Part shown: positions 1 through 47,282 of the stretch, one piece after another
Position numbering within the stretch: position 1 is the stretch's first letter
Layout: each line of letters begins with the position of its first letter
IMG/VR virus record: IMGVR_UViG_3300010376_000052
Coordinates: 1 to 47,282 of that record
Direction: 5' to 3' (one strand)
From: a virus
Lineage: Duplodnaviria > Caudoviricetes
DNA: 47,282 bases
Program-made: the position numbers and the translations under genes
Notes under the pieces: model-generated
What the model was told of the DNA's origin: nothing
What the model saw: the letters and a program-made list of their open reading frames with translations, nothing else
Databases searched by the model: none

Positions 1-77
1 ACCGAGGGACTCGTTTATACGTGGTGTGATCGGTGCTCCTCCGGGGTGGTTGTTTGTCCAGGCGGACTACTCCCAGA
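1..77. repeat. Terminal overlap identical to 47206-47282 (circular assembly)
   Basis: ACCGAGGGACTCG...CTACTCCCAGA is present at both ends; 77 nt is a common assembler k-mer; the polymerase frame continues across the join. Confidence 0.97.
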
Positions 78-799
78 TCGAGTTACGCATCGCTGCCCAC
101 ATCGCCAAGGAGAGGAGGATGCGACGAGCGTTCCTCGTAGGGGAAGATCTCCATCTGGTCACCGCGTCCTCTCTTACTGGGAAATCGCCGACGATGGTGA
201 CGAAGGAGGAACGCAAGCGGGCTAAGGCCGTCAACTTCGGTTTCCTGTACGGCATGTATCCGAGGAAGTTCCAGTCGTATGCGTTCGAGAACTATGGGGT
301 CGAGGTGTCGCTCGCAGAGGCGGAGCTGGCACGTTCGAAGTACTTCTCAATGTTCTCCGATCTGGAGGGATGGCATGATCGGCAGAGGCGCGTTGCCCAC
401 AATTATCACCGCGTCGTCTCACCACTCGGACGCATACGACATCTACCAGATATCCTCTCTTCAGATAACGGTGTCCGTATGGAGGCGGAGAGGCAGGCGA
501 TCAACAGCCCTGTTCAGGCCACCGCAAGTGATCTTATGCTATTCTCCATGGTTCAGCTCGCGCCTCAGCTTGACCCGAAGACAGCTTTCTTGGTCGGCAC
601 ACTCCACGATGCTATCTTCCTCCAGGTCAGGGAAGAAGTAGTCGATGAGATAGCACCTGTGGTCAAGGACGTGATGGAGAACCTACCTCTGAAGAAGACG
701 TTCGGCGTAGATATCGACATCCCCATCATCGTGGATGTTGAGTGGGCGCAGCATTGGACGGGGACTCCCGACGCATCGGGGCTAGGAATCGAGGCATGA
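2..799 (+). CDS. polA: DNA polymerase family A, C-terminal polymerase domain (continuation of the gene starting at 45575)
   Basis: Motif A ADYSQIELR, motif B RKRAKAVNFGFLYG, NSPVQATASD, motif C TLHDAI; in frame with 45575-47282. Confidence 0.96.
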   Translation, partial: PRDSFIRGVIGAPPGWLFVQADYSQIELRIAAHIAKERRMRRAFLVGEDLHLVTASSLTGKSPTMVTKEERKRAKAVNFGFLYGMYPRKFQSYAFENYGVEVSLAEAELARSKYFSMFSDLEGWHDRQRRVAHNYHRVVSPLGRIRHLPDILSSDNGVRMEAERQAINSPVQATASDLMLFSMVQLAPQLDPKTAFLVGTLHDAIFLQVREEVVDEIAPVVKDVMENLPLKKTFGVDIDIPIIVDVEWAQHWTGTPDASGLGIEA

Positions 800-28060: not shown

Positions 28061-28205
28061 ACGGCTTCCATCCTTTCCGGGTTGGGGGCTTCTTGGGGTT
28101 GCGCCAGGTCTGCGTAGCCTTGCCTCGGGACGAGGTCCAGCTACTTGGCCCGACACCGTGTGAGCGAGGCTGCTGGAACACAGACCGTACCTTCTTACGC
28201 GGCAT
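28050..28205 (-). CDS. Small basic protein, first gene of late block
   Basis: RBS GGAGG before MPRKKVRSVF. Confidence 0.5.
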   Translation of the reverse strand: MPRKKVRSVFQQPRSHGVGPSSWTSSRGKATQTWRNPKKPPTRKGWKPYGN

Positions 28206-28317
28206 GAGCTTCCTCCCACGCGGCTCTATCCCTGGCGGCCGTGCTGCGTCCTTCTCGCTTCGCTCTCTCACGACAAAATCCGACGTCGATTCCTCCTTCG
28301 CGCACGCGCAGGGGGGG

Positions 28318-28424
28318 TTCATTGAAAACGTGAATGATTGAAACGTGCAACGATTGACGTTGTGAACGATTGTCACACGCAATCGTGTGCGGATTCAACG
28401 ATTGTGATATGTTTACACAATCAT
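28318..28424. repeat. Iterated AYGATTG heptamers with 16-bp phasing
   Basis: Copies at 28334, 28350, 28366, 28398; inverted copies at 28380 and 28418; partial copy at 28318. Confidence 0.7.
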
Positions 28425-28494
28425 TACACGATGACGTGTGTACGTGTGCAATAATCACGTTGTGATCAACGAACACACGAAAGGGGGTGACGAC

Positions 28495-28671
28495 ATGGCA
28501 AAGACGATGACGCCGACCGAGCTGGCGCTTGAGCTGAACGTATCGCCCAAGACGCTGCGCGGGTGGCTTCGCAAGCATCACACGCGCCCTGTGAACGTGA
28601 AAAACACTTCGTGGGCGCTCGATGCGAAAACGTGCAACGCTGCACGTAAAGCGTTCAAGCGCGACGCGTAA
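28495..28671 (+). CDS. Small HTH DNA-binding protein, paralog 1 (58 aa)
   Basis: MTPTELALELNVSPKTLRGWLRK...KNTSW; RBS AAGGGGGTGA. Confidence 0.8.
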   Translation: MAKTMTPTELALELNVSPKTLRGWLRKHHTRPVNVKNTSWALDAKTCNAARKAFKRDA

Positions 28672-28682
28672 CGCGCTCGATC

Positions 28683-28719
28683 GTGTGTGTGACGTACACA
28701 ATGTGTGCGTCACACACAC
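28683..28719. terminator. Long (GT)/(AC) hairpin after HTH paralog 1
   Basis: GTGTGTGTGACGTACAC-AAT-GTGTGCGTCACACACAC. Confidence 0.55.
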
Positions 28720-28740
28720 ACACAACGAAACGACGTGCCC

Positions 28741-28815
28741 ATGACAATCGTCCTGCTCATCATCATCGCCGTGCTGCTCATCGCCTACTACCGCGCCTGC
28801 AACCCGCCCGATTGA
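28741..28815 (+). CDS. 24-aa membrane peptide
   Basis: MTIVLLIIIAVLLIAYYRACNPPD; followed by a terminator-like hairpin at about 28842-28875. Confidence 0.45.
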   Translation: MTIVLLIIIAVLLIAYYRACNPPD

Positions 28816-28896
28816 CGCCGACGCCTGACCGCGATCCGCGTCGAACCGTGCCCCGTGAAAACGGGGTTCGGTTTTGGTGCGGCGGTGGCGCGGCCA

Positions 28897-28934
28897 ACTA
28901 ACTGAGGACCCACATGGATCCTCCACCAGAGGCC
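28897..28934 (+). repeat. 38-bp dispersed repeat, copy 1
   Basis: ACTAACTGAGGACCCAC-atggat-CCTCCACCAGAGGCC. Confidence 0.9.
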
Positions 28935-28987
28935 TGTCCTCGACCAATCGGTCTTGGAGATTCGAGGACACGCGAGGCACCAAACGG

Positions 28988-29016
28988 TTGACAATGGTAG
29001 CCACATGCGTCATGAT
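28988..29016 (+). promoter_or_regulatory. Sigma70-type early promoter
   Basis: TTGACA-N17-CATGAT. Confidence 0.65.
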
Positions 29017-29061
29017 GTGTTTGTGATCAACGTCAACCGACATGCGAAAGGAGGTGACGAA

Positions 29062-29265
29062 ATGGCGACCAAGTCCAAGACCATGACCCCGAAGGAACTC
29101 GCGTCCGAACTCGGAATCGACGCGAAGGTCCTGCGCGGATGGCTCCGCAAGGAACATCCCCGCGCCGCCGAGGCCAAGAACACGTCGTGGGTCATTCCTG
29201 CGAACGTGTGCGCTCAGGCCCGCAAGGTGTTTGCCAAGAACAAGGCAGGCTCCGCGAAGGCGTAG
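29062..29265 (+). CDS. Small HTH DNA-binding protein, paralog 2 (67 aa)
   Basis: MTPKELASELGIDAKVLRGWLRK...KNTSW; RBS AAGGAGGTGA. Confidence 0.82.
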   Translation: MATKSKTMTPKELASELGIDAKVLRGWLRKEHPRAAEAKNTSWVIPANVCAQARKVFAKNKAGSAKA

Positions 29266-29270
29266 GCCGA

Positions 29271-29312
29271 ACAACATGGGGGACCTCATTACGCGGGGGT
29301 CCCCTTTGTTGT
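29271..29312 (+). terminator. Intrinsic terminator
   Basis: ACAACA-GGGGGACCTC...GGGGGTCCCC-TTTGTTGT. Confidence 0.75.
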
Positions 29313-29352
29313 GGGCAAGTGCATGGACCACAGTGGGTGTGTGGTCGAGCCC

Positions 29353-29390
29353 ACTAACTGAGGACCCACTAAAGGCCTCCACCAGAGGCC
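29353..29390 (+). repeat. 38-bp dispersed repeat, copy 2
   Basis: ACTAACTGAGGACCCAC-taaagg-CCTCCACCAGAGGCC. Confidence 0.9.
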
Positions 29391-29424
29391 CGGGCCTTAT
29401 GGAGTGTGTGGTTCTCCCGGCCAT

Positions 29425-34675: not shown

Positions 34676-34740
34676 GAACTACGTCATGCGTTCACCGCCC
34701 GCGCTTGACCTCACACACCACAGGGCGGGAAGGAGGCACT

Positions 34741-35361
34741 ATGCCCCGTAAGCGCAGCAAGGCAGAGGTCGAGGAGCTCGACGACGAGCTCGAGGACGAC
34801 GAAGAACTCGACCTGGAAGACCTCGACGACGAGGCAGACGTCGAAGACGAGGACGTCGAGGAAGAGGACGAGGATGAGGACGAGGAAGCTCCGAAGCCTC
34901 GCCGCAAGAAGAAGGCGACGACCGCCAAGTCCAAGAAGAAGGCAGCGAAGGCGAACGGCAGCATCGGATCGTCAGAACTCGCTGAGGCACTGGGCACGGA
35001 CGGTCGGAACCTGCGTGTCATGCTCCGCAGCAAGGGCGTCGAGAAGAACGAGAACAACCGCTACGAGTGGGACTCGGTCGACGACGCGCTCGAGGAACTC
35101 GGCTTCGACGACCTCGAGGAGGCGCAGGACGCACTCAAGGCTGCGCGTGACGAGAGGCTCGAGGAGCTGAAGTCGCGCAACGCCAAGAAGAAGAAGTCCA
35201 AGTCGAAGGCTCAGGACGACGACGAGGACGAAGACGAAGATGAGGACGAAGACGAGGATGAGGACGAGGAGGAAGAGGAGGAGGCCCCGAAGCCGAAGAA
35301 GAAGCCGGCTGCGAAGAAGGCCCCCGCCAAGAAGCCGACTCGTGCTCGGGCTCGCAAGTAG
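34741..35361 (+). CDS. Acidic/basic block protein with central HTH (family of 28495/29062) and histone-H1-like tail
   Basis: Two D/E tracts each ending EEAPKP.KK; core SSELAEALGTDGRNLRVMLR...NRYEW; tail PAAKKAPAKK; RBS AAGGAGG. Confidence 0.8.
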   Translation: MPRKRSKAEVEELDDELEDDEELDLEDLDDEADVEDEDVEEEDEDEDEEAPKPRRKKKATTAKSKKKAAKANGSIGSSELAEALGTDGRNLRVMLRSKGVEKNENNRYEWDSVDDALEELGFDDLEEAQDALKAARDERLEELKSRNAKKKKSKSKAQDDDEDEDEDEDEDEDEDEEEEEEAPKPKKKPAAKKAPAKKPTRARARK

Positions 35362-39258: not shown

Positions 39259-39465
39259 GTGTCAGACTACCAGGACATCGCCCTAGCAAGTGCACAACTG
39301 GCGGTAACAGTCGGCATTGTCGAAGCTGCTGTCATGCAGGGGGAGGATACTCCTGACGAGGTCAAGGAAAATCTGACCGAGAAGATCGACGACGTGGTAG
39401 CATTCCTCAAGCGGGAGATCGAGGAGTTCGTCAGTTTCGGTGAGGCGTATGACAGTGAGACGTAG
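39259..39465 (+). CDS. Small acidic helical protein
   Basis: RBS AGGAGG, GTG start. Confidence 0.6.
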   Translation: MSDYQDIALASAQLAVTVGIVEAAVMQGEDTPDEVKENLTEKIDDVVAFLKREIEEFVSFGEAYDSET

Positions 39466-40195
39466 ACGAATAACCACGTCATCGAAGAAGCTACGCAGAC
39501 GGCTCAAGGTAACTGATCTCTACGGTGAGGGGGTGAGTGGTAATTTACTCCAGGGGCGATATGGGACCGAGGCCGTGTATGCATGGTTCCAGAATCGCCA
39601 TCGACGAGGTTACCAGCGACTCGACGACGGGGTGTACCACAGTGGCAAGTATTCGTGGACAGTACCACCCACGGTGCTTGCGTGTCTGAGGCAGCCAATC
39701 ACCACCAACCAGATGAGTGTGAGGCTAGCGTGGTATGTGACGTGGATATCACCGAGGACCGGGCAGAGACTACGGAAGTACTTCATGTCGCCGTGGGTAG
39801 CGATGGAGTTCCTGGCGACGAAGGCTTCGCGTGTCGATCCGCATGCTGCTCTGGTCTCTCGCACACGTCCGTACGACGTGCCCGCGAAGTATAGGGGCAA
39901 GTTCCCGCACAAACAACCGTTCCGAGGCAGAGAACGAACGTGGTATTGGTGTCCCCTCTGTATGCAACCGCGCAGGTTTAGGGCAGTGAAACCACCCCGC
40001 GAGTTCTATGCGACAGTCAAGGTGTGGTCAGAAGAGAAGCAGCGTTACATCCCGAAGGACAGGAAGCTACGACTGCTTGAGTGTTCGTACTGCTCGTGCA
40101 CCAACCAGAACTCTGTGTTCCGACGGTCGAATCAACCGTGGGAGCTGCGTAAGTTCAAGAAGGGTGCGCGGAGAGCAAGGAGAAGGAGGAGGTAA
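39449..40195 (+). CDS. Basic Zn-ribbon hypothetical protein
   Basis: WCPLC...CSYC; Arg-rich C-terminus; start uncertain. Confidence 0.6.
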   Translation: MTVRRRRITTSSKKLRRRLKVTDLYGEGVSGNLLQGRYGTEAVYAWFQNRHRRGYQRLDDGVYHSGKYSWTVPPTVLACLRQPITTNQMSVRLAWYVTWISPRTGQRLRKYFMSPWVAMEFLATKASRVDPHAALVSRTRPYDVPAKYRGKFPHKQPFRGRERTWYWCPLCMQPRRFRAVKPPREFYATVKVWSEEKQRYIPKDRKLRLLECSYCSCTNQNSVFRRSNQPWELRKFKKGARRARRRRR

Positions 40196-40416: not shown

Positions 40417-41850
40417 GTGAAGTACCTCGCGAAGACCAAGCCGTTCAAGCATCAAGCCAAGGCTACACTTCGTGCCGTCCGCCACCGCAATTATGCGGTT
40501 TTCTTTGAGCCACGACTTGGGAAGACGAAGGTAGCCTTGGACTACTCGGCTATACTCGCATTGAAGGGTGAATGTCGCAGGGTACTGATCCTTGCGCCGT
40601 CGATTGCCCTCGACGTGTGGGCGAGTGAGCTACACAAGCACTTCCCGTACTGGTATGACGCCGAGACGTTTGAGGAGGAGTGGCACAGTGCTACTACGAT
40701 TTATGCTGGAGATCCGCCTGAGGTCAGATTTTTCCTCGCGGGACGGGAGGAGACGTTCAGAGCGGTCCGTGCTCGTACCAACCTCCGACGCCCGAAGCAG
40801 GAGATCCTCGAGAAGTGGGACCCGGACGTGGTCGTCATTGACGAGAGCCATCAGTACAAGCGACCCGGTGGGCGCGCTGCTCAGGATGCCTGGAGGCTTG
40901 TCCGTCGTCTGCGCAAGAAGAGACAGGACGGACGGCCGTACGTACTTCTACTCACCGGAACTCCAAACCCCAAGGGCTGGCGCGATCTGTTTGCTCAGTT
41001 CCGAATCATGGATGAGTCGCTGTTCGGCACGAATGCTGGCTCGTTTGACGAGGAGTACGTTGTCCGTGGTACAGGACGACGGCAGTGGGCGATACTGGGA
41101 TACAACCATCTCAGTAGACTCAAGCGGATAGTTAGACAGAACAGCATCACCTGCACCGCGCAGCAAGCCGGCCTTGCCGGCCAGCTATTCTGGCAGATCC
41201 TACCGGTCAAACTACCACAGAGGGTGATGGACCTCTATGAAGAACTGGCTGAAGAATACATTGTGGAGACTGAGCACGGGGTTCTGGATGCTGCCAATCA
41301 GGGTGTTCTGCGTCTGCGCCTACTTCAGCTTACGTCTGGGTTCCTCACAGGTGGGGAACAGATCCATGATGGTAAGACTACCATTCTCCGAGCGTATGCT
41401 GAGGGTCTCCGTGACCAGGATGAAGACGTGGTCGTTAGCTGTCGTTTCACAGCAGAGGTTGATTCCTCCCGGGACGTTCTGGAACGACTGGGCTATCACA
41501 CTCAGGTACTCGACGGTAGAACGAAGCGCAGAGATCGCCGTCACATCTTGGACACGTTTCAGTCATCACGCCGTAGCCCACAGGCGTTGGTCATGCAACA
41601 CCAAGCCGGATCGCTCAGCATCGAACTCACTCGTGCTGCCGAAGTGGTATTCCTCACACTCCCGGATGATTGGGTAGCATTCTGGCAGGTGCTCAACCGA
41701 CTCAGAGGTCCCAACCAAAAGCGACCCGTCCGCGTCTCAGCAATCATAGCCCGCAACACAGTGGACCGGCGCGTTCTATATGGCTTACGCAGGAAAGAGG
41801 ATTGGCATGGGGATCTCATGCGCGATCCGCACAGGTTCCTCTGCGTTTGA
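40417..41850 (+). CDS. SNF2-family (superfamily 2) DNA helicase
   Basis: PFKHQ, EPRLGKT, IDESH, LTGTP, LLQLTSGF, LDGRT, QVLNRLRG. Confidence 0.9.
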   Translation: MKYLAKTKPFKHQAKATLRAVRHRNYAVFFEPRLGKTKVALDYSAILALKGECRRVLILAPSIALDVWASELHKHFPYWYDAETFEEEWHSATTIYAGDPPEVRFFLAGREETFRAVRARTNLRRPKQEILEKWDPDVVVIDESHQYKRPGGRAAQDAWRLVRRLRKKRQDGRPYVLLLTGTPNPKGWRDLFAQFRIMDESLFGTNAGSFDEEYVVRGTGRRQWAILGYNHLSRLKRIVRQNSITCTAQQAGLAGQLFWQILPVKLPQRVMDLYEELAEEYIVETEHGVLDAANQGVLRLRLLQLTSGFLTGGEQIHDGKTTILRAYAEGLRDQDEDVVVSCRFTAEVDSSRDVLERLGYHTQVLDGRTKRRDRRHILDTFQSSRRSPQALVMQHQAGSLSIELTRAAEVVFLTLPDDWVAFWQVLNRLRGPNQKRPVRVSAIIARNTVDRRVLYGLRRKEDWHGDLMRDPHRFLCV

Positions 41851-41856
41851 TATAAT
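41846..41856 (+). promoter_or_regulatory. Extended -10 promoter of the nucleotide-metabolism/polymerase operon
   Basis: TTTGATATAAT, same motif as 38881/38927. Confidence 0.65.
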
Positions 41857-41888
41857 GGTACGTATAACTACTAGGAGGTGAGCACGGG

Positions 41889-42089
41889 GTGTCAGATCGT
41901 TGGAAGGTCAAGGGACTGCCGCTCGAATCGTTCAACCACGAAGGTGGCAGTGCGGGTGAACCGTTCGCGGCCATCCAGCTCCCGAGCGGGACGGTTATCT
42001 TGACCAAGGAACCGTACTTCTACGAGGGCGACGAGGACAGGTCGTCAGCGCTAGAAGAGAACAGGCAGCTGGAACGTGAGCGCGGATAA
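41889..42089 (+). CDS. Hypothetical protein
   Basis: RBS GGAGGTG. Confidence 0.5.
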   Translation: MSDRWKVKGLPLESFNHEGGSAGEPFAAIQLPSGTVILTKEPYFYEGDEDRSSALEENRQLERERG

Positions 42090-42636
42090 GCTGCCCATGA
42101 TCGTCGAGGGGCCTGATGGATCGGGTAAGACGCAGCTCGCGCATCAGCTGTGTGAGGAGTTCAATCGGGAGTATCGTCGGCCGCCGCCTGCAGCGTTGTC
42201 ATCTACGCACGGGCCCACAGGTGGGTCACTCGTCGCGTGGTGGGACAACCATCTCGCTCGACCCTGGACTTTCCTGCGAGCTGGCGTGTACGACCGCTGC
42301 TTCTACATCAGTGATCCGATCTACCAGCAGGCGCAGGTCGACAGGGATCTGATCGTCGCACCCCACGTGCTCGCTCGAGGCATCGCCAGACTGTGGTCGA
42401 TCGAGCCAGTGATGATCTTCTGCTTGCCGCCGTTCGATGTGCAGCTCAGCAACGTGCGCCATGACGGTAGGCCTCAACTTGAGGGCGTGAGCGCGCAGGC
42501 ACTGGCGAAGATCTGGAATGCGTACTACGCTGCGTATGCTGTCTGGTCACAGGCGCTGTTCGACAACGTCTTGCTCTACGACTACACCGAGGAGGATGCG
42601 TGGGAGAAGCTACTGGACAAGATATCCTCGATCTGA
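42076..42636 (+). CDS. dNMP (thymidylate-type) kinase
   Basis: IVEGPDGSGKT P-loop, YDRC.YISD.IY, IFCLPP. Confidence 0.85.
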   Translation: MSADKLPMIVEGPDGSGKTQLAHQLCEEFNREYRRPPPAALSSTHGPTGGSLVAWWDNHLARPWTFLRAGVYDRCFYISDPIYQQAQVDRDLIVAPHVLARGIARLWSIEPVMIFCLPPFDVQLSNVRHDGRPQLEGVSAQALAKIWNAYYAAYAVWSQALFDNVLLYDYTEEDAWEKLLDKISSI

Positions 42637-42950
42637 GGAGGATCCAAACACTACACAGACTGTGGCTGAACCACAACTTCCCGACGCAGACTCGGGAGCA
42701 GATCGTGTTCGGGATGGTGGAAGAGCTGGGAGAACTCTGTCACCACCTGCTGAAGCGTGAGCAAGGAATCCGAGGAGGTGGTGTCGACCACGAGTATGAG
42801 ATCCGCGACGCGTGCGCTGACCTCGTTATCTTCATGATGGGCCTCGCAGACGAAGAGGGCTTCGATCTGCTGACGGCTATCAACGAGGCTTGGGATCAGG
42901 TCAAGCGTAGAGACTGGATCAGATTCCCCAAGAACGGAGTTGACGCATGA
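42600..42950 (+). CDS. MazG-like NTP pyrophosphohydrolase
   Basis: MVEELGEL, EIRDACAD. Confidence 0.85.
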   Translation: MGEATGQDILDLRRIQTLHRLWLNHNFPTQTREQIVFGMVEELGELCHHLLKREQGIRGGGVDHEYEIRDACADLVIFMMGLADEEGFDLLTAINEAWDQVKRRDWIRFPKNGVDA

Positions 42951-43126
42951 GCACCCCCGCAGCGCAGTCCTTCTCCATGAAGCTCTTGTTCCTTCTCGCC
43001 GCCGTAGTCCTGCTCATCTTGGTAGTAGTCTTCGAGTTCTTCGTTCACAAGATCTCAGAGCACACTGACCTCGGCTTGCTCGCGCTTGGCCTCGCCTGCT
43101 ACGTGATCGCGCAGGTGGTGCCGTAA
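42947..43126 (+). CDS. 59-aa two-TM membrane protein
   Basis: Hand translation MSTPAAQSFSMKLLFLLAAVVLLILVVVFEFFVHKISEHTDLGLLALGLACYVIAQVVP; ATGA and TAATG coupling. Confidence 0.65.
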   Translation: MSTPAAQSFSMKLLFLLAAVVLLILVVVFEFFVHKISEHTDLGLLALGLACYVIAQVVP

Positions 43127-43302
43127 TGCTTGCTGACAAGAGAGACCAACGCGATCCCACAACCATCGGGCAGCAGATACTTGCCATGCAAGGCAAGACC
43201 GCCCATGAGAAGGCCGACAAGGTTCTCGGTGTCAGCATGAACGGCAAGAAACCGTGGCAAGGTGTACCCGGACTGAAGAAAACGGTGAGGCATGATCAGT
43301 AA
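43126..43302 (+). CDS. 58-aa hypothetical protein
   Basis: Coupled ORF MLADKRDQRD...TVRHDQ filling the gap. Confidence 0.5.
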   Translation: MLADKRDQRDPTTIGQQILAMQGKTAHEKADKVLGVSMNGKKPWQGVPGLKKTVRHDQ

Positions 43303-44116
43303 GGACTACGAGACACTGTCGGATCTGTGGAGGGGGTCGATCTGGCGCATGTGGCGGGGCACGATTGACAATGGCCTCGTCGATTGCGTCGGTAGTGCAG
43401 ACATCATCAGCTACGACAACGTCCTGCGGTGCGACAGCATGGCGTTCGACCTCGACATGGGCCGCGACTTGTGGCTCAACAAGCAACGGTGGACGAGGTT
43501 GGTGAGGGACTATGTGGACAAAGAAGAACTCCTCAGGTTCATCGAGAAGGCGACGGAGATCGGGTACGGAGATGGAGCTAAGGGAGCCTGTACTTCCATG
43601 TTCTCCCGAAACGTTGAGCGTTATAGCAAGCGCCATCGGTGGGGGAACTGCATGCTCGGTTTCACGTATCGAGGCAAAGTGGGACGGGAAACTCCCACCC
43701 TATCTATGCACTCTCGCGTGTCCTACATCGCCTACATCGGCGGACTGGATCTTGCACTTGCCCATGTCCTGGCGAGAACTATCGGAAAGCGAATTGGAGC
43801 GCCGCCTGAGGATTTTGCTTTCCGGTGGCATGTAGACGCGTTGCAGTTCCACGGGTTCAAGTCGCTCCCGATGCTGTACAAGACCGCATACATAGACGAC
43901 CTCGAGCGAAAGGAGTTACGCCGACAGTATCCAACGATCAACCTAGTGGGCAAATGGTACGACAAGATCAAGGAGTATCATGAGGCCGGAATCCACGACA
44001 ACAAGTACGGACCACTCAAGCGGGTCATGCGACGGTACCGTGAGTACATGGCCGAGGATTACCTGCCCACCGTCACGGTCAAGGACCTGACATGGCAGCC
44101 TCTCTATCCCCGGTGA
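43292..44116 (+). CDS. Divergent thymidylate-synthase-fold protein A
   Basis: WGNCMLGFTY (Cys), LSMHSRVSYIAYIGGLDLALAHVLA and FRWHVDALQFH align by eye with TS PCH..QF / QRSCDVFLGLPFN / HLY. Confidence 0.62.
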   Translation: MISKDYETLSDLWRGSIWRMWRGTIDNGLVDCVGSADIISYDNVLRCDSMAFDLDMGRDLWLNKQRWTRLVRDYVDKEELLRFIEKATEIGYGDGAKGACTSMFSRNVERYSKRHRWGNCMLGFTYRGKVGRETPTLSMHSRVSYIAYIGGLDLALAHVLARTIGKRIGAPPEDFAFRWHVDALQFHGFKSLPMLYKTAYIDDLERKELRRQYPTINLVGKWYDKIKEYHEAGIHDNKYGPLKRVMRRYREYMAEDYLPTVTVKDLTWQPLYPR

Positions 44117-44847
44117 ACGTCTTCGAGTGGATTGACGACGCCATCGCGCAGTCGATCGCGTGCCTCGTCGAGACTGGCGAGGACGTAGATGCGGGTCGGT
44201 GGCAAGGTGTGCCCACAGAGGGTAGACCTGACATGGTGACCAAGGAAATCATCAATCTCCAGTGGTCAGCGCAGATGCCTGAGACCATGGAGGAGGCTCA
44301 GGAACTGATCAATCCGAACCTCCCGTGGGCGGAGGATCACTTCCAGGAACGCATCGCCGGCGAACCAACGAACCCGGGCAGGGAGTACGAGAACTGGCCC
44401 TGGTGGCGTGGGCAGGACAGCGAGACCATGATCGGAGGCAAGTTTACGCACACCTACCAGGAGCGATTCTGGCCACCTCGAGGGCTACTCGGCATTCGCT
44501 TTTCGTACGGAAACCTCGACGATGTGGTCGGCCATCTATCTGAGAACCCACTGTCGCGGCAAGCAACATTCCCGATTTGGTTCCCAGAAGATACTGGTGT
44601 CGTGCATGGTGGACGTGTACCTTGCACGTTGCACTATCACTTCCTCCGTCGCAAAGACAGGCTACACCTGTGGTATCCGATACGCAGTTGTGACGCCGTG
44701 CGACACTTCCGCGACGACATCTACATGGCAGTAAGACTCGCGCAGTACGTGCTCGCACGACTCGGTTGGGAGGATGTCGAGGTAGGCTTCCTCAACTTCA
44801 ACGCCTACTCATTCCACGTCCACAAGGGGGATCTGCATTTGCTATGA
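44113..44847 (+). CDS. Thymidylate synthase homolog B (dCMP hydroxymethylase-like Asp)
   Basis: NPLSRQA, IWFPED, RVPCTLHYHF, IRSCDAVRHFRDDIY, SFHVH; GTGA coupling to gene A. Confidence 0.85.
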   Translation: MNVFEWIDDAIAQSIACLVETGEDVDAGRWQGVPTEGRPDMVTKEIINLQWSAQMPETMEEAQELINPNLPWAEDHFQERIAGEPTNPGREYENWPWWRGQDSETMIGGKFTHTYQERFWPPRGLLGIRFSYGNLDDVVGHLSENPLSRQATFPIWFPEDTGVVHGGRVPCTLHYHFLRRKDRLHLWYPIRSCDAVRHFRDDIYMAVRLAQYVLARLGWEDVEVGFLNFNAYSFHVHKGDLHLL

Positions 44848-45374
44848 GTGAGATCAGTTTCCCAGGGATCGGCCGCGACATACTGCGGAAAGACGTGTTC
44901 ATGCGGATAGCAATCGAGCTGTCTCGCCTCGGCACTTGCCCCCGCAAGGCGGTGGGTGCTATCCTCGTGCGCGACGGTCGCTGCATCGCGTGGGGCTACA
45001 ACGGTGCGCCCGCTGGTCTGCCCCACTGCGAAGACAACAATCACGGTTGGGTGTTACAACCTGAGTACCGCGAGCAATACGAGGATCACGACGCCATCGA
45101 GATAGAGAACACGATGCTCTCCGAGTACGGCTGTCGCAACGCGACTCATGCAGAGGCGAATGCCCTTGCGTTTGCGGCGCGTCAGGGGATCTCTACAGAC
45201 GGTACGACACTGTTTGTGACTGTTGCACCGTGCGACGTATGCAGCAAGTTGCTGATCGCCGCAGGAATCCGTCGCGTTTACTACGAAGAGGAGTACCGCG
45301 ATCCCGCTGGCATCGAGCTACTCAAGCTCGCGGGTATCGGCACCGTCAAGCAGGAGTTCCATGGGGACACCTAG
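44844..45374 (+). CDS. dCMP deaminase
   Basis: TC.RKAVGA, GYNG.P, HAEANA, APCDVC; ATGA coupling. Confidence 0.92.
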   Translation: MSEISFPGIGRDILRKDVFMRIAIELSRLGTCPRKAVGAILVRDGRCIAWGYNGAPAGLPHCEDNNHGWVLQPEYREQYEDHDAIEIENTMLSEYGCRNATHAEANALAFAARQGISTDGTTLFVTVAPCDVCSKLLIAAGIRRVYYEEEYRDPAGIELLKLAGIGTVKQEFHGDT

Positions 45375-45585
45375 TCCAGTAAGGCGAGTCGCATGGTTCC
45401 ACGTCGTGATCGAGTCCTCAGACGAGGACGTAGTCAATCGCTGGCTTGCCACAGTGAACCAGGCGGTAGACGTATTCGCTAGGCAGGCCGCGGACATCTG
45501 CGAGGGCAAGGTCAGAGTGATTGAGGTCGAAGCGCCAGGTCAGTCGATCCCAGTCAATGCGCTCCGCCACAAAGATGACGTATAA
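45361..45585 (+). CDS. Hypothetical protein
   Basis: RBS GGAG; overlaps both neighbours. Confidence 0.55.
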   Translation: MGTPSPVRRVAWFHVVIESSDEDVVNRWLATVNQAVDVFARQAADICEGKVRVIEVEAPGQSIPVNALRHKDDV

Positions 45586-47282
45586 GTCCCCACTCGATCA
45601 CCTGATGGACCACGACTGTGATCGTTGTCCTCTCGCTGAGACCACAGACCGCATCTGTGTGGGTGGATCGGGTAATCCCAAGAACCGCATAATGATCATC
45701 GGGGAGGCGCCGGGTGAGCAAGAAGCCGTCAGTGGGCGTGTTTTCAGTGGACGAGCTGGAACCCTCCTTGACCGGTTACTGGAAGAGGCGGGTCTTGATC
45801 GAGACGAGTGTTATGTTACCAACGTCGTCAAGTGCCGTCCGCCTGACAACCGTCGTCCGGATCGGGTCGAGTTCGAGGCTTGTCGAGTTTACCTCGAGGC
45901 TGAAGCTCGTGCGGTCAAGCCCCGATTCGTACTACTACTTGGGAACGCTGCCCTACAGGCTGTGGCTAGGAAATCTGGCATTACTAAGCAGCGCGGTCTT
46001 CGTCTCAAGTGTAAGGACCCTGTGTGGTCGGGTCGTCAGGTCATGGCTACATTCCATCCAGCGTACATTCTCCGCAATCCGGGGCAGCACTCGACGCTAG
46101 CGGAGGACGTGAAGCGCTTCGCCCGCATGATGCGCGGCGAGTTCCAGGTAGTCCCAGTGAGGAGCAAGTATGTCAATACCGTCGAAGGGGTCAACTGGCT
46201 CACGAGGAAGGTTAGGGCCCTGCCCCCTAAAACTGTGGTCTCCTATGACGTGGAAAACCGAGGAAGACCTTGGGAAGCGGAGTGGGATATCGTATGCCTG
46301 GGTATTTCTTGGGACGGACGTACTACCTACGTGGTTCCCCTTTCTCATCCTGAGTCACCCTTCCGTCGGCGATGGCGAGATGTGGTGTATCACCTCGGTA
46401 AAGCTCTCCAGAGATCCGATCTCAAACTCGTCGGTCAGAATGCGAAACATGACAACCAGCAGCTTGCGGGAGCCAACGTCTTCCTTGAGCACACTTTCGA
46501 CATTATGCTGGCTGCGCACCTTCTCGACGAGAATCGTCCAAAGAATTTGGGGTTCCTCAGCCAAAGTGTACTAGGCGCTGACGTCTACAAAGGCATGGTG
46601 GAACTCAAACCTGACAAGATTATGAAGGAGCCGCTAAGGAAAATCTGCTCATACAACGGCAACGATGTAGGCTACACGCACCAGATATACCCTCGGCTTC
46701 GTGAAGAACTGCTCGCACAACCTCGCCTCACACGCCTGTTTGCCAAACTCATGATGCCAGCCTCACACGTCGTCCAGCAAGTCGAGGCGGCGGGTATGTA
46801 TGTGGATCAGCGGAGGTTGTTCCACAGGATGGCTATCCTACAGGGGGAGATAGACGAGCGCAAGGAGGTGCTTCGTGAAAATCTTCCAAAGGCATGGCGC
46901 GAGGACTTCAACTTCAATTCCCCACAGCAGCTTGGGCGTTGGCTTTTCTCTAAGCGGGGACTGGGACTCTCACCATTGGAGACAACGGCGTCGGGCCGTC
47001 CGTCGACTAAGGAAGCAGTCCTTCTCCACTATCACGATCACCCCGCTATCCAGGCCCTTCTCGAATACAGGACGCTACAGCTCAAATGGATGAACACCTA
47101 CTTGTTACCATGGTCTACGAGATTGGATACTCGAAGCAGGCTCCACACTACCTACAAGCTGTACGGGACAGTGACTGGACGATTGTCTGGCGACCTGCAG
47201 CAGGTACCGAGGGACTCGTTTATACGTGGTGTGATCGGTGCTCCTCCGGGGTGGTTGTTTGTCCAGGCGGACTACTCCCAGA
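45575..47282 (+). CDS. polA: DNA polymerase A, N-terminal part: family-4 uracil-DNA glycosylase + 3'-5' exonuclease (continues at 1-799; about 809 aa in total)
   Basis: Hand translation: CDRCPL, IIGEAPGEQE, TNVVKCRPPDNR, EACR, TFHPAYILRNP; ExoI YDVEN, ExoII QNAKHD, ExoIII YNGND; FNSPQQL, TGRLS. Confidence 0.92.
   Translation, partial: MTYKSPLDHLMDHDCDRCPLAETTDRICVGGSGNPKNRIMIIGEAPGEQEAVSGRVFSGRAGTLLDRLLEEAGLDRDECYVTNVVKCRPPDNRRPDRVEFEACRVYLEAEARAVKPRFVLLLGNAALQAVARKSGITKQRGLRLKCKDPVWSGRQVMATFHPAYILRNPGQHSTLAEDVKRFARMMRGEFQVVPVRSKYVNTVEGVNWLTRKVRALPPKTVVSYDVENRGRPWEAEWDIVCLGISWDGRTTYVVPLSHPESPFRRRWRDVVYHLGKALQRSDLKLVGQNAKHDNQQLAGANVFLEHTFDIMLAAHLLDENRPKNLGFLSQSVLGADVYKGMVELKPDKIMKEPLRKICSYNGNDVGYTHQIYPRLREELLAQPRLTRLFAKLMMPASHVVQQVEAAGMYVDQRRLFHRMAILQGEIDERKEVLRENLPKAWREDFNFNSPQQLGRWLFSKRGLGLSPLETTASGRPSTKEAVLLHYHDHPAIQALLEYRTLQLKWMNTYLLPWSTRLDTRSRLHTTYKLYGTVTGRLSGDLQQVPRDSFIRGVIGAPPGWLFVQADYSQ

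Follow-up and report, generated by a model that had tools for sequence, protein, structure and literature searches.

A divergent thymidylate-synthase-fold protein beside an unclassified dCMP-type homologue in a conserved phage cassette

What does a phage make with two adjacent genes for proteins of predicted thymidylate synthase (TS) fold, both carrying Asp at the position that distinguishes cytosine from uracil substrates? The question is raised by IMG/VR virus record IMGVR_UViG_3300010376_000052, of which we analysed the whole stretch of 47,282 nucleotides (the window). The window is a complete phage genome of 47.2 kb: it is a single contig, circular with a 77-bp terminal repeat (record class: direct terminal repeats, 100% complete), and family scans of its open reading frames (ORFs) revealed terminase, portal, capsid, tail and lysis genes. 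The phage may stem from soil: one sequencing run of a soil metagenome contains 0.96 of the words sampled, and three runs with shares below 0.2 were left aside. Its + strand holds a cassette in the order kinase–MazG–A–B–deoxycytidine monophosphate (dCMP) deaminase–uracil-DNA glycosylase (UDG)/PolA, in which protein A (43292..44116) and protein B (44092..44847, likely start at the GTG at 44113) are the two TS-fold proteins. This is a conserved cassette of known layout, with one unrecognised TS-fold family (A) and one unclassified active site (B).

The fold of protein A is invisible to sequence methods. Pfam, NCBIfam and both phmmer and profile searches of the PDB were blank, an hhalign comparison of A1 with A2 gave a probability of 0.1, and the only good family match was phrog_13667 ("unknown function", E 9e-33). 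The AlphaFold model, based on an alignment of 76 sequences, reached a predicted local distance difference test score of 93.2. When this model was compared with the PDB by Foldseek, all 42 listed matches belonged to the TS superfamily (best E 2.5e-6). VIA-align against 48,161 chains likewise placed seven TS-superfamily chains at the top, with Z scores from 14.8 to 9.4, the next match having 3.8. The best of them was the flavin dCMP hydroxylase AfhB (Z 14.8, root-mean-square deviation 3.2, 185 aligned residues). An uncharacterised protein of phage PMBT14 was the third match in a viral structure library, and the ESM Atlas gave a feature link from A to a cluster with 37% PF00303 annotation. By its predicted fold, protein A is thus a member of the TS superfamily, as an earlier reading of this DNA made from the letters and their translations (the sequence-only reading) had claimed. 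In every record seen it is labelled "hypothetical".

A profile search for homologues of A returned 259 clusters (E up to 0.001; less than 50% identity between clusters), of which 150 were listed. We aligned 132 sequences: 123 of the listed clusters (27 outside 230–380 amino acids were left out), 8 homologues from GenBank and the protein of the window itself. With ThyA numbering assigned from spacing and secondary structure rather than by residue-level superposition, C120 (equivalent to C146) is conserved in 131/131 sequences, R142 (R166) in 132/132 and Y74 in 130/130, while D153, at the place of Asn177, is found in 128/132, with Glu in the remaining four. The motifs WGNC and RVSY-IAYI-GGLD are present as the sequence-only reading quoted them, and it was also right that the RSxD aspartate is gone from A. 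The column of Ser167 holds mostly Thr or Val, and that of Asp169 (Y145 in the window) holds Tyr in 95, Phe in 12, Glu in 7 and Arg in 5 of the 132 sequences. Asp169 is a folate contact in TS, and its loss suggests that A works without folate. The strictly kept Cys, Arg and Asp in turn suggest that A has retained the ability to bind a cytosine nucleotide and attack it.

Protein B could be assigned to the TS fold from sequence (PF00303, E 8.5e-5; phrog_160, E 4.4e-25) and from its predicted model, whose top Foldseek match was AfhB; GenBank labels it thymidylate synthase. Its alignment comprised 129 sequences, namely the window protein, 8 from GenBank and the best 120 of 2532 homologues, and therefore mostly close relatives. 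Arg175, Cys178, Asp201, His205, Asp209 and Tyr122 were each found in 129/129. In ThyA terms, R175 stands at L143, T179 at H147, D201 at D169, H205 at G173 and D209 at N177, and the C-terminus is short; the motifs RVPC and RSCD-AVRH-FRDD had been reported correctly. According to the residue rules in the part of PMC13326640 consulted, Asn or Asp at 177 selects U or C, Leu versus Asp/Glu at 143 separates methyl from hydroxymethyl transfer, and Asn169 marks hydroxylation. Judged by its residues, B is of the dCMP type by Asp177, yet it has no product class under these rules: the signature Arg143, His173, Asp169, Asp177 fits no tested TS class, and the earlier claim that the product is not readable from known rules holds. 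The reference enzymes carry Asp143/Asp177 (T4, Ilzat), Asn143/Asp177 (Xp12, PaMx74) or Asp143/Asn177 (SPO1, YuA, Molly), all with Gly173; among the reference types seen, only the flavin enzyme AfhB departs from Gly173 (Val). Canonical ThyA has Asn177, His147 and Leu143, for which B has Asp, Thr/Ser and Arg. Arg126 has an equivalent in B in 129/129 (R156), and Arg occupies the likely matching column of A in 65/121, a pattern that fits a heterodimer as well as sequential action.

The pairing of A and B is not limited to the window. Of 50,697 phage records searched by tblastn, 85 contained A and 138 contained B. Nine GenBank records were opened, eight of which are B-type (Muddy, Serbin, Triscuit, Zuko, Clo-PEP-1, PMBT14, Polewnik and MD02); Maribacter phage Molly_5 (Asp143/Asn177, no A) was left out of the counts. 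All eight have an A-sized gene with the Cys/Arg/Asp pattern upstream of B. Since these phages seeded the A profile, their profile matches arise by construction, but tblastn independently recovered three of them and the fold comparison one. Among 17 IMG/VR loci found via B, 16 have A and one begins inside B; among six GTDB loci, five have A (one weakly: L050, E 5e-5) and one has just 180 bp upstream. A therefore precedes B in 29/29 B loci with upstream DNA. In the neighbourhood survey that the sequence-only reading had proposed, B lay 3' of A in 20/20 loci found via A, many of them on the same contigs as the B loci. The same gene order in relatives indicates that the cassette is not a chance arrangement. 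Over 31 loci plus the window, pairwise identities of A and B correlate at 0.74, compared with 0.84 for A and the polymerase and 0.85 for A and the deaminase, so that the correlation reflects co-inheritance only and holds no specific A–B signal. The hosts are Actinobacteria, Clostridium, several Proteobacteria and one Desulfofustis. The set of kinase, TS and deaminase is mentioned for Serbin in PMC6509536, with nothing on A in the part consulted. In one contig (L009:597-1411) gene A is split over two frames, either by a sequencing error or because the gene is broken.

The operon is not of an undescribed type, contrary to what had been suggested, for its layout of an Asp177 TS with deaminase, PRA-PH and PolA has been published (Yang 2021, 2024; Xp12) and the A–B pair occurs in many cultured phages. 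The metavirome cassettes of PMC8670742 and 10.1101/2024.12.05.627091, in the parts consulted, combine an Asp177 TS with a dCMP-family deaminase, PRA-PH and PolA on modified-cytosine contigs; the residue 177 rule and its link to such contigs come from PMC13326640 and PMC8670742. On modified-C contigs 104/149 deaminases lay within 3 kb of a TS, versus 17/277 on unmodified ones, and PRA-PH and PolA were among the top deaminase neighbours (10.1101/2024.12.05.627091). The window has the same arrangement, with a deaminase no more than 3 kb from an Asp177 TS, a pyrophosphatase and PolA. Unlike the window, those cassettes come with no mention of a second TS-fold gene in the parts consulted, and their tested enzymes made 5-methyl-dCMP alone (5/7). 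The four B motifs had no match in the PMC8670742 supplementary files searched, which are partly an enrichment table.

The 5-methylcytosine module of Xp12 and PaMx74 resembles the window in having pyrophosphatase, TS and deaminase side by side in that order and Asp177, and PRA-PH is common to Xp12 and some relatives of the window phage. It differs in that Xp12 encodes dihydrofolate reductase (DHFR) and no A, and in its single TS, which carries Asn143 and Gly173 and ends in a long tail; the Xp12 TS matches B over 80 amino acids only (27.5%). T4 gp42 shares Asp177, Thr147, Glu at the E28 column, an FR(N/D)D motif and a short tail with B, but has Asp143 and Gly173, whereas Arg143 in all aligned B proteins departs from the hydroxymethylase rule. 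The pathway of T4 (gp56, gp1, cd, td) follows the same logic of pyrophosphatase, kinase and deaminase; its enzyme is a single homodimer, and T4 has glucosyltransferases and a B-family polymerase. The flavin dCMP hydroxylases HY126 AfhB and RB69 gp48 (PMC13326640, in part) have lost Gly173 like B and Asp169 like A. However, their diagnostic D169N is absent from both proteins (Asp in B, 129/129; Tyr/Phe/Glu in A), and the cassette has no arabinose or glycosyltransferase genes. The SPO1 pathway to hydroxymethyluracil includes a deaminase, a TS homologue and a UDG-like domain with PolA, as does the window, but B lacks the Asp143/Asn177 signature of the SPO1 and YuA dUMP hydroxymethylases, and no homologue of A was found in SPO1.

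Our preferred explanation, to which we give slightly less than an even chance, is that A and B together place a C5 substituent on dCMP and that the modified cytosine replaces some or all C in virion DNA, with B as the first catalyst and A as an obligate second one. It is suggested by Asp at position 177 in both proteins, as the sequence-only reading had noted, and it is favoured by the constant pairing of A with B, the features shared with T4 gp42 and the PRA-PH protein of PMBT14 and Polewnik, which is of the same family as that of the 5-methylcytosine phage Xp12. In Triscuit a canonical ThyA is kept beside A and B, so that B is unlikely to be a source of deoxythymidine monophosphate (dTMP) there. 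From gene content, predicted folds, residues and linkage we infer the following course. The pyrophosphatase would convert dCTP to dCMP and so clear the dCTP pool. The Cys of B would add to C6 of dCMP, and a species with a methylene or hydroxymethyl group at C5 would arise with no oxidation of folate, which would explain why DHFR was found in none of the nine cassette genomes scanned (the Xp12 control was positive). Protein A, having kept Cys, Arg and Asp and lost the folate-contacting Asp169, might then bind the product of B, re-activate it via its own Cys and complete or exchange the substituent, either as dimer partner of B or as the next enzyme in sequence; this is the weakest step, and we consider it doubtful. 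The kinase and a host nucleoside diphosphate kinase would supply the triphosphate and PolA would incorporate it. The deaminase would divert part of the cytosine nucleotide into the thymidine pool, a role put forward for Xp12 as well, and the UDG domain would clear stray uracil.

If cytosine were fully replaced by a protective base, selection against restriction sites should disappear. Our count covered palindromes of 6 bp for which 8 or more copies are expected, and we regarded those at 20% or less of expectation as lost, a threshold chosen after a first look at the data. Of the C-containing palindromes, 35/319 were lost in cassette genomes (window 2/37, Muddy 5/39, Serbin 3/25, Clo-PEP-1 2/22, PMBT14 6/39, MD02 3/36, Triscuit 1/40, Zuko 7/41, Polewnik 6/40), compared with 3/144 in modified-C controls (Xp12 2/38, PaMx74 0/32, 140 of the 169 kb of T4 0/42, Ilzat 1/32; per-genome p 0.008). 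The label of Ilzat was deduced from its genes and those of Xp12, PaMx74 and T4 come from the literature; hosts differ and n is small. SPO1 (4/35), YuA (20/33) and D29 (14/36), which we take to be unmodified in C, had lost 38/104, and the loss in cassette genomes is lower than this (per-genome p 0.07). Clear examples are CTCGAG (1/36) and CAGCTG (0/21) in Zuko and CCCGGG in Serbin (0/13). Palindromes of G and C only were lost in PMBT14 (4/8) and Serbin (2/3), while most lost sites contain T. The loss is thus intermediate and fits a partial or weakly protective modification in the group; the window itself, with a value equal to that of Xp12, is neutral. The five palindromes lost in Muddy each include a CpG, and a nuclease that depends on modification or acts at CpG sites might be the reason. 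Serbin (L058-L060) has 3 GATC where 180 are expected, and Clo-PEP-1 (L061-L063) has a CpG ratio of 0.13.

Several of these observations weigh against modified cytosine. Palindrome loss in the relatives speaks against full protective replacement. The acidic residue of the hydroxymethylases at position 143 is absent from B, where His also replaces Gly173, so use of folate by B is not assured. A kinase, a dUTPase and a deaminase equally make up the usual gene set for supplying deoxythymidine triphosphate (dTTP), a trimeric dUTPase occupies the pyrophosphatase slot in one locus (L050), and no Pfam-detectable TS other than B exists in 7/8 cultured relatives, the exception being Triscuit. In the literature outside subscription papers we found no account of the A family, the B signature or modified bases in phages of this group, nor any measurement on a member. 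In favour of modified cytosine, Muddy and Maco6, which carry the cassette according to tblastn, fully infect a strain whose hsdSMR locus restricts phage BPs (PMC11604996, in part, where the cause is not addressed), although missing sites or an anti-restriction protein could account for the escape of Muddy as well.

The restriction-site loss and the lack of ThyA in most relatives, together with a deaminase nearly always right after B, would also be explained by a cytosine route to ordinary dTTP. Here A and B would make 5-methyl-dCMP without DHFR (B might form a hydroxymethyl or methylene group that A reduces), the deaminase would lead on to dTMP and dTTP, the kinase would be a plain thymidylate kinase and virion DNA would be canonical. 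The dUTPase_2 proteins in the pyrophosphatase slot of Muddy, Serbin and Triscuit and the trimeric dUTPase of L050 would suit this route, as would flavin-binding AfhB as the nearest solved fold to A and the deamination of 5-methyl-dCTP to dTTP proposed for Xp12 in 10.1101/2024.12.05.627091 (in part). We nevertheless regard it as unlikely, given the additional ThyA of Triscuit, a palindrome loss below that of the unmodified-C controls, the escape of Muddy from a restriction system and the lack of a visible reductase partner.

Less likely again is that A and B modify dCMP and the deaminase then yields 5-hydroxymethyl- or otherwise 5-substituted dUMP and dUTP, which would replace T, with the pyrophosphatase removing dTTP and dUTP. 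Hydroxymethyluracil replaces T in SPO1, a phage that combines a deaminase with a UDG-like domain on a polymerase ORF and has lost restriction sites nonetheless, and the losses of G/C-only palindromes in PMBT14 and Serbin agree with such DNA. Deaminases of such cassettes made 5-hydroxymethyl-deoxyuridine from 5-hydroxymethyl-deoxycytidine in an E. coli screen (10.1101/2024.12.05.627091, in part). Yet most lost sites contain T, the ThyA of Triscuit would oppose T replacement, and the SPO1 and YuA signature is unlike that of B. It seems very improbable that B is a divergent dUMP-to-dTMP synthase breaking the Asp177 rule and A an inactive scaffold or regulator. The neighbours do match a canonical dTTP-supply set and GenBank calls B thymidylate synthase, but B lacks Asn177, His147, Gly173, Leu143 and the long C-terminal tail, A keeps its Cys and Arg throughout clusters of less than 50% identity, and no DHFR was found in the nine cassette genomes. 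Any other outcome we hold slightly less probable still.

Every divergent TS class tested so far has turned out to have a distinct nucleotide chemistry, and the signature of B matches none. We tentatively raise the possibility, well short of an even chance, that A and B are the first heterodimeric or two-step TS-fold enzyme, with a chemistry that falls in none of the four classes tested (methyl, hydroxymethyl on C, hydroxymethyl on U, hydroxyl). Such an enzyme would either put a never-seen pyrimidine into the DNA of Muddy and of a large group of phages that spans phyla, or make thymidylate from cytosine without DHFR and so add a third route to those of ThyA and ThyX. Dozens of cultured phages carry the cassette, among them Muddy, a therapy phage given to patients, and a non-canonical base in its DNA would bear on why Muddy escapes host restriction. 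As cultured carriers exist, the readings are testable at once.

In the window, the operon follows an SNF2 helicase gene and extends from 41889 to the polymerase, which spans the contig ends. All along the operon, stop codons overlap the starts of the next genes (ATGA at 42947 and 44844, TAATG at 43124-43128, GTGA at 44113), and no sigma-70-type promoter passed a scan of 41600-45700. The five genes and the polymerase named by the sequence-only reading are all there on the + strand, but its list omitted four small ORFs. These are a 66-amino-acid ORF directly past the helicase gene (41889..42089; no Pfam or PHROG match, look-alikes by eye in L036 and L041), a hydrophobic one of 59 amino acids, probably a membrane protein (42947..43126), one of 58 amino acids (43126..43302), neither with a significant Pfam or PHROG family, and one of 74 amino acids (45361..45585; look-alike by eye in L010).

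The P-loop dNMP kinase is TMK-like (42076..42636, alternative ATG start at 42097; phrog_761, E 7.4e-14), and the all-alpha MazG-like dNTP pyrophosphatase (42600..42950; phrog_715, E 2.9e-7) probably acts on dCTP and/or dUTP. Pfam support is weak for both (E 0.017 and 0.009, respectively) and the calls rest on PHROGs. Six of six kinase-less loci tested have a DUF6378 (PF19905) protein exactly at the kinase position (L015:5357-5662, L018:5352-5672, L019:2391-2702, L037:2545-2979, L039:2197-2511, L041:5183-5500), suggesting a nucleotide kinase or a stand-in for the same job. The pyrophosphatase slot is filled by MazG-like, dUTPase_2, PRA-PH or trimeric dUTPase proteins, so functions are kept though families change. 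The zinc deaminase, of the dCMP deaminase family (44844..45374; PF00383, E 7.4e-22; phrog_174, E 2e-50), has counterparts 3' of B in all loci but L038; the Clo-PEP-1 record has one at another place. The deaminase genes of Polewnik (L026:5698-6174) and Muddy (L001:10732-11274) are missed or called "hypothetical" in GenBank, and our initial view from the annotation that Polewnik has none was wrong, as the locus scan showed.

The polymerase gene begins at 45575..47282 (UDG, 3'-5' exonuclease and start of the polymerase domain; TIGR00758, PF01612, PF00476) and continues at 2..799 (PF00476, E 2.1e-59) across the terminal repeat. Its N-terminal family-4 UDG domain (45575-46140) scores 164.1 bits against a cut-off of 125.3, with apparently intact motifs, and DNA containing deoxyuridine was rejected as a candidate for this reason. 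The domain is found in most relatives and was not detected in Muddy, Polewnik and Desulfofustis MD02. As the sequence-only reading had stated, scans of the window ORFs gave no DHFR, glycosyltransferase or DNA hypermodifier: none of the latter two was recognised among 61 scanned ORFs, and a hypermodifier elsewhere in the genome was not recognised in 48 further ORFs, many of them unassigned, so that absence is not proven.

Some relatives carry extra genes within the cassette. A contig binned as Pacearchaeota (L050:1370-6768) holds a divergent cassette of TMK, the trimeric dUTPase, a protein of 288 amino acids that bears a DDDD motif, A, a class I SAM methyltransferase (PF13578) and B, possibly a further-modified variant. 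A protein of 125-135 amino acids with a coiled N-terminus, a likely helix-turn-helix and the motif VRSHLNR recurs between A and B (L011, L012, L013, L016, L037, L038, L039, L041, L045). Elsewhere in the window, a 409-amino-acid ORF (28195-29424) looks non-coding. A 218-amino-acid protein (34705-35361), very acidic and basic with a central folded part and a weak phrog_3724 match, resembles phage DNA-binding or DNA-mimic proteins, and an Arg-rich ORF of 251 amino acids (39440-40195) without family match has two CxxC pairs near its C-terminus. Finally, a LAGLIDADG homing endonuclease gene (2019-2378) lies 3' of an exonuclease gene, and a similar one is located between A and B in L006.

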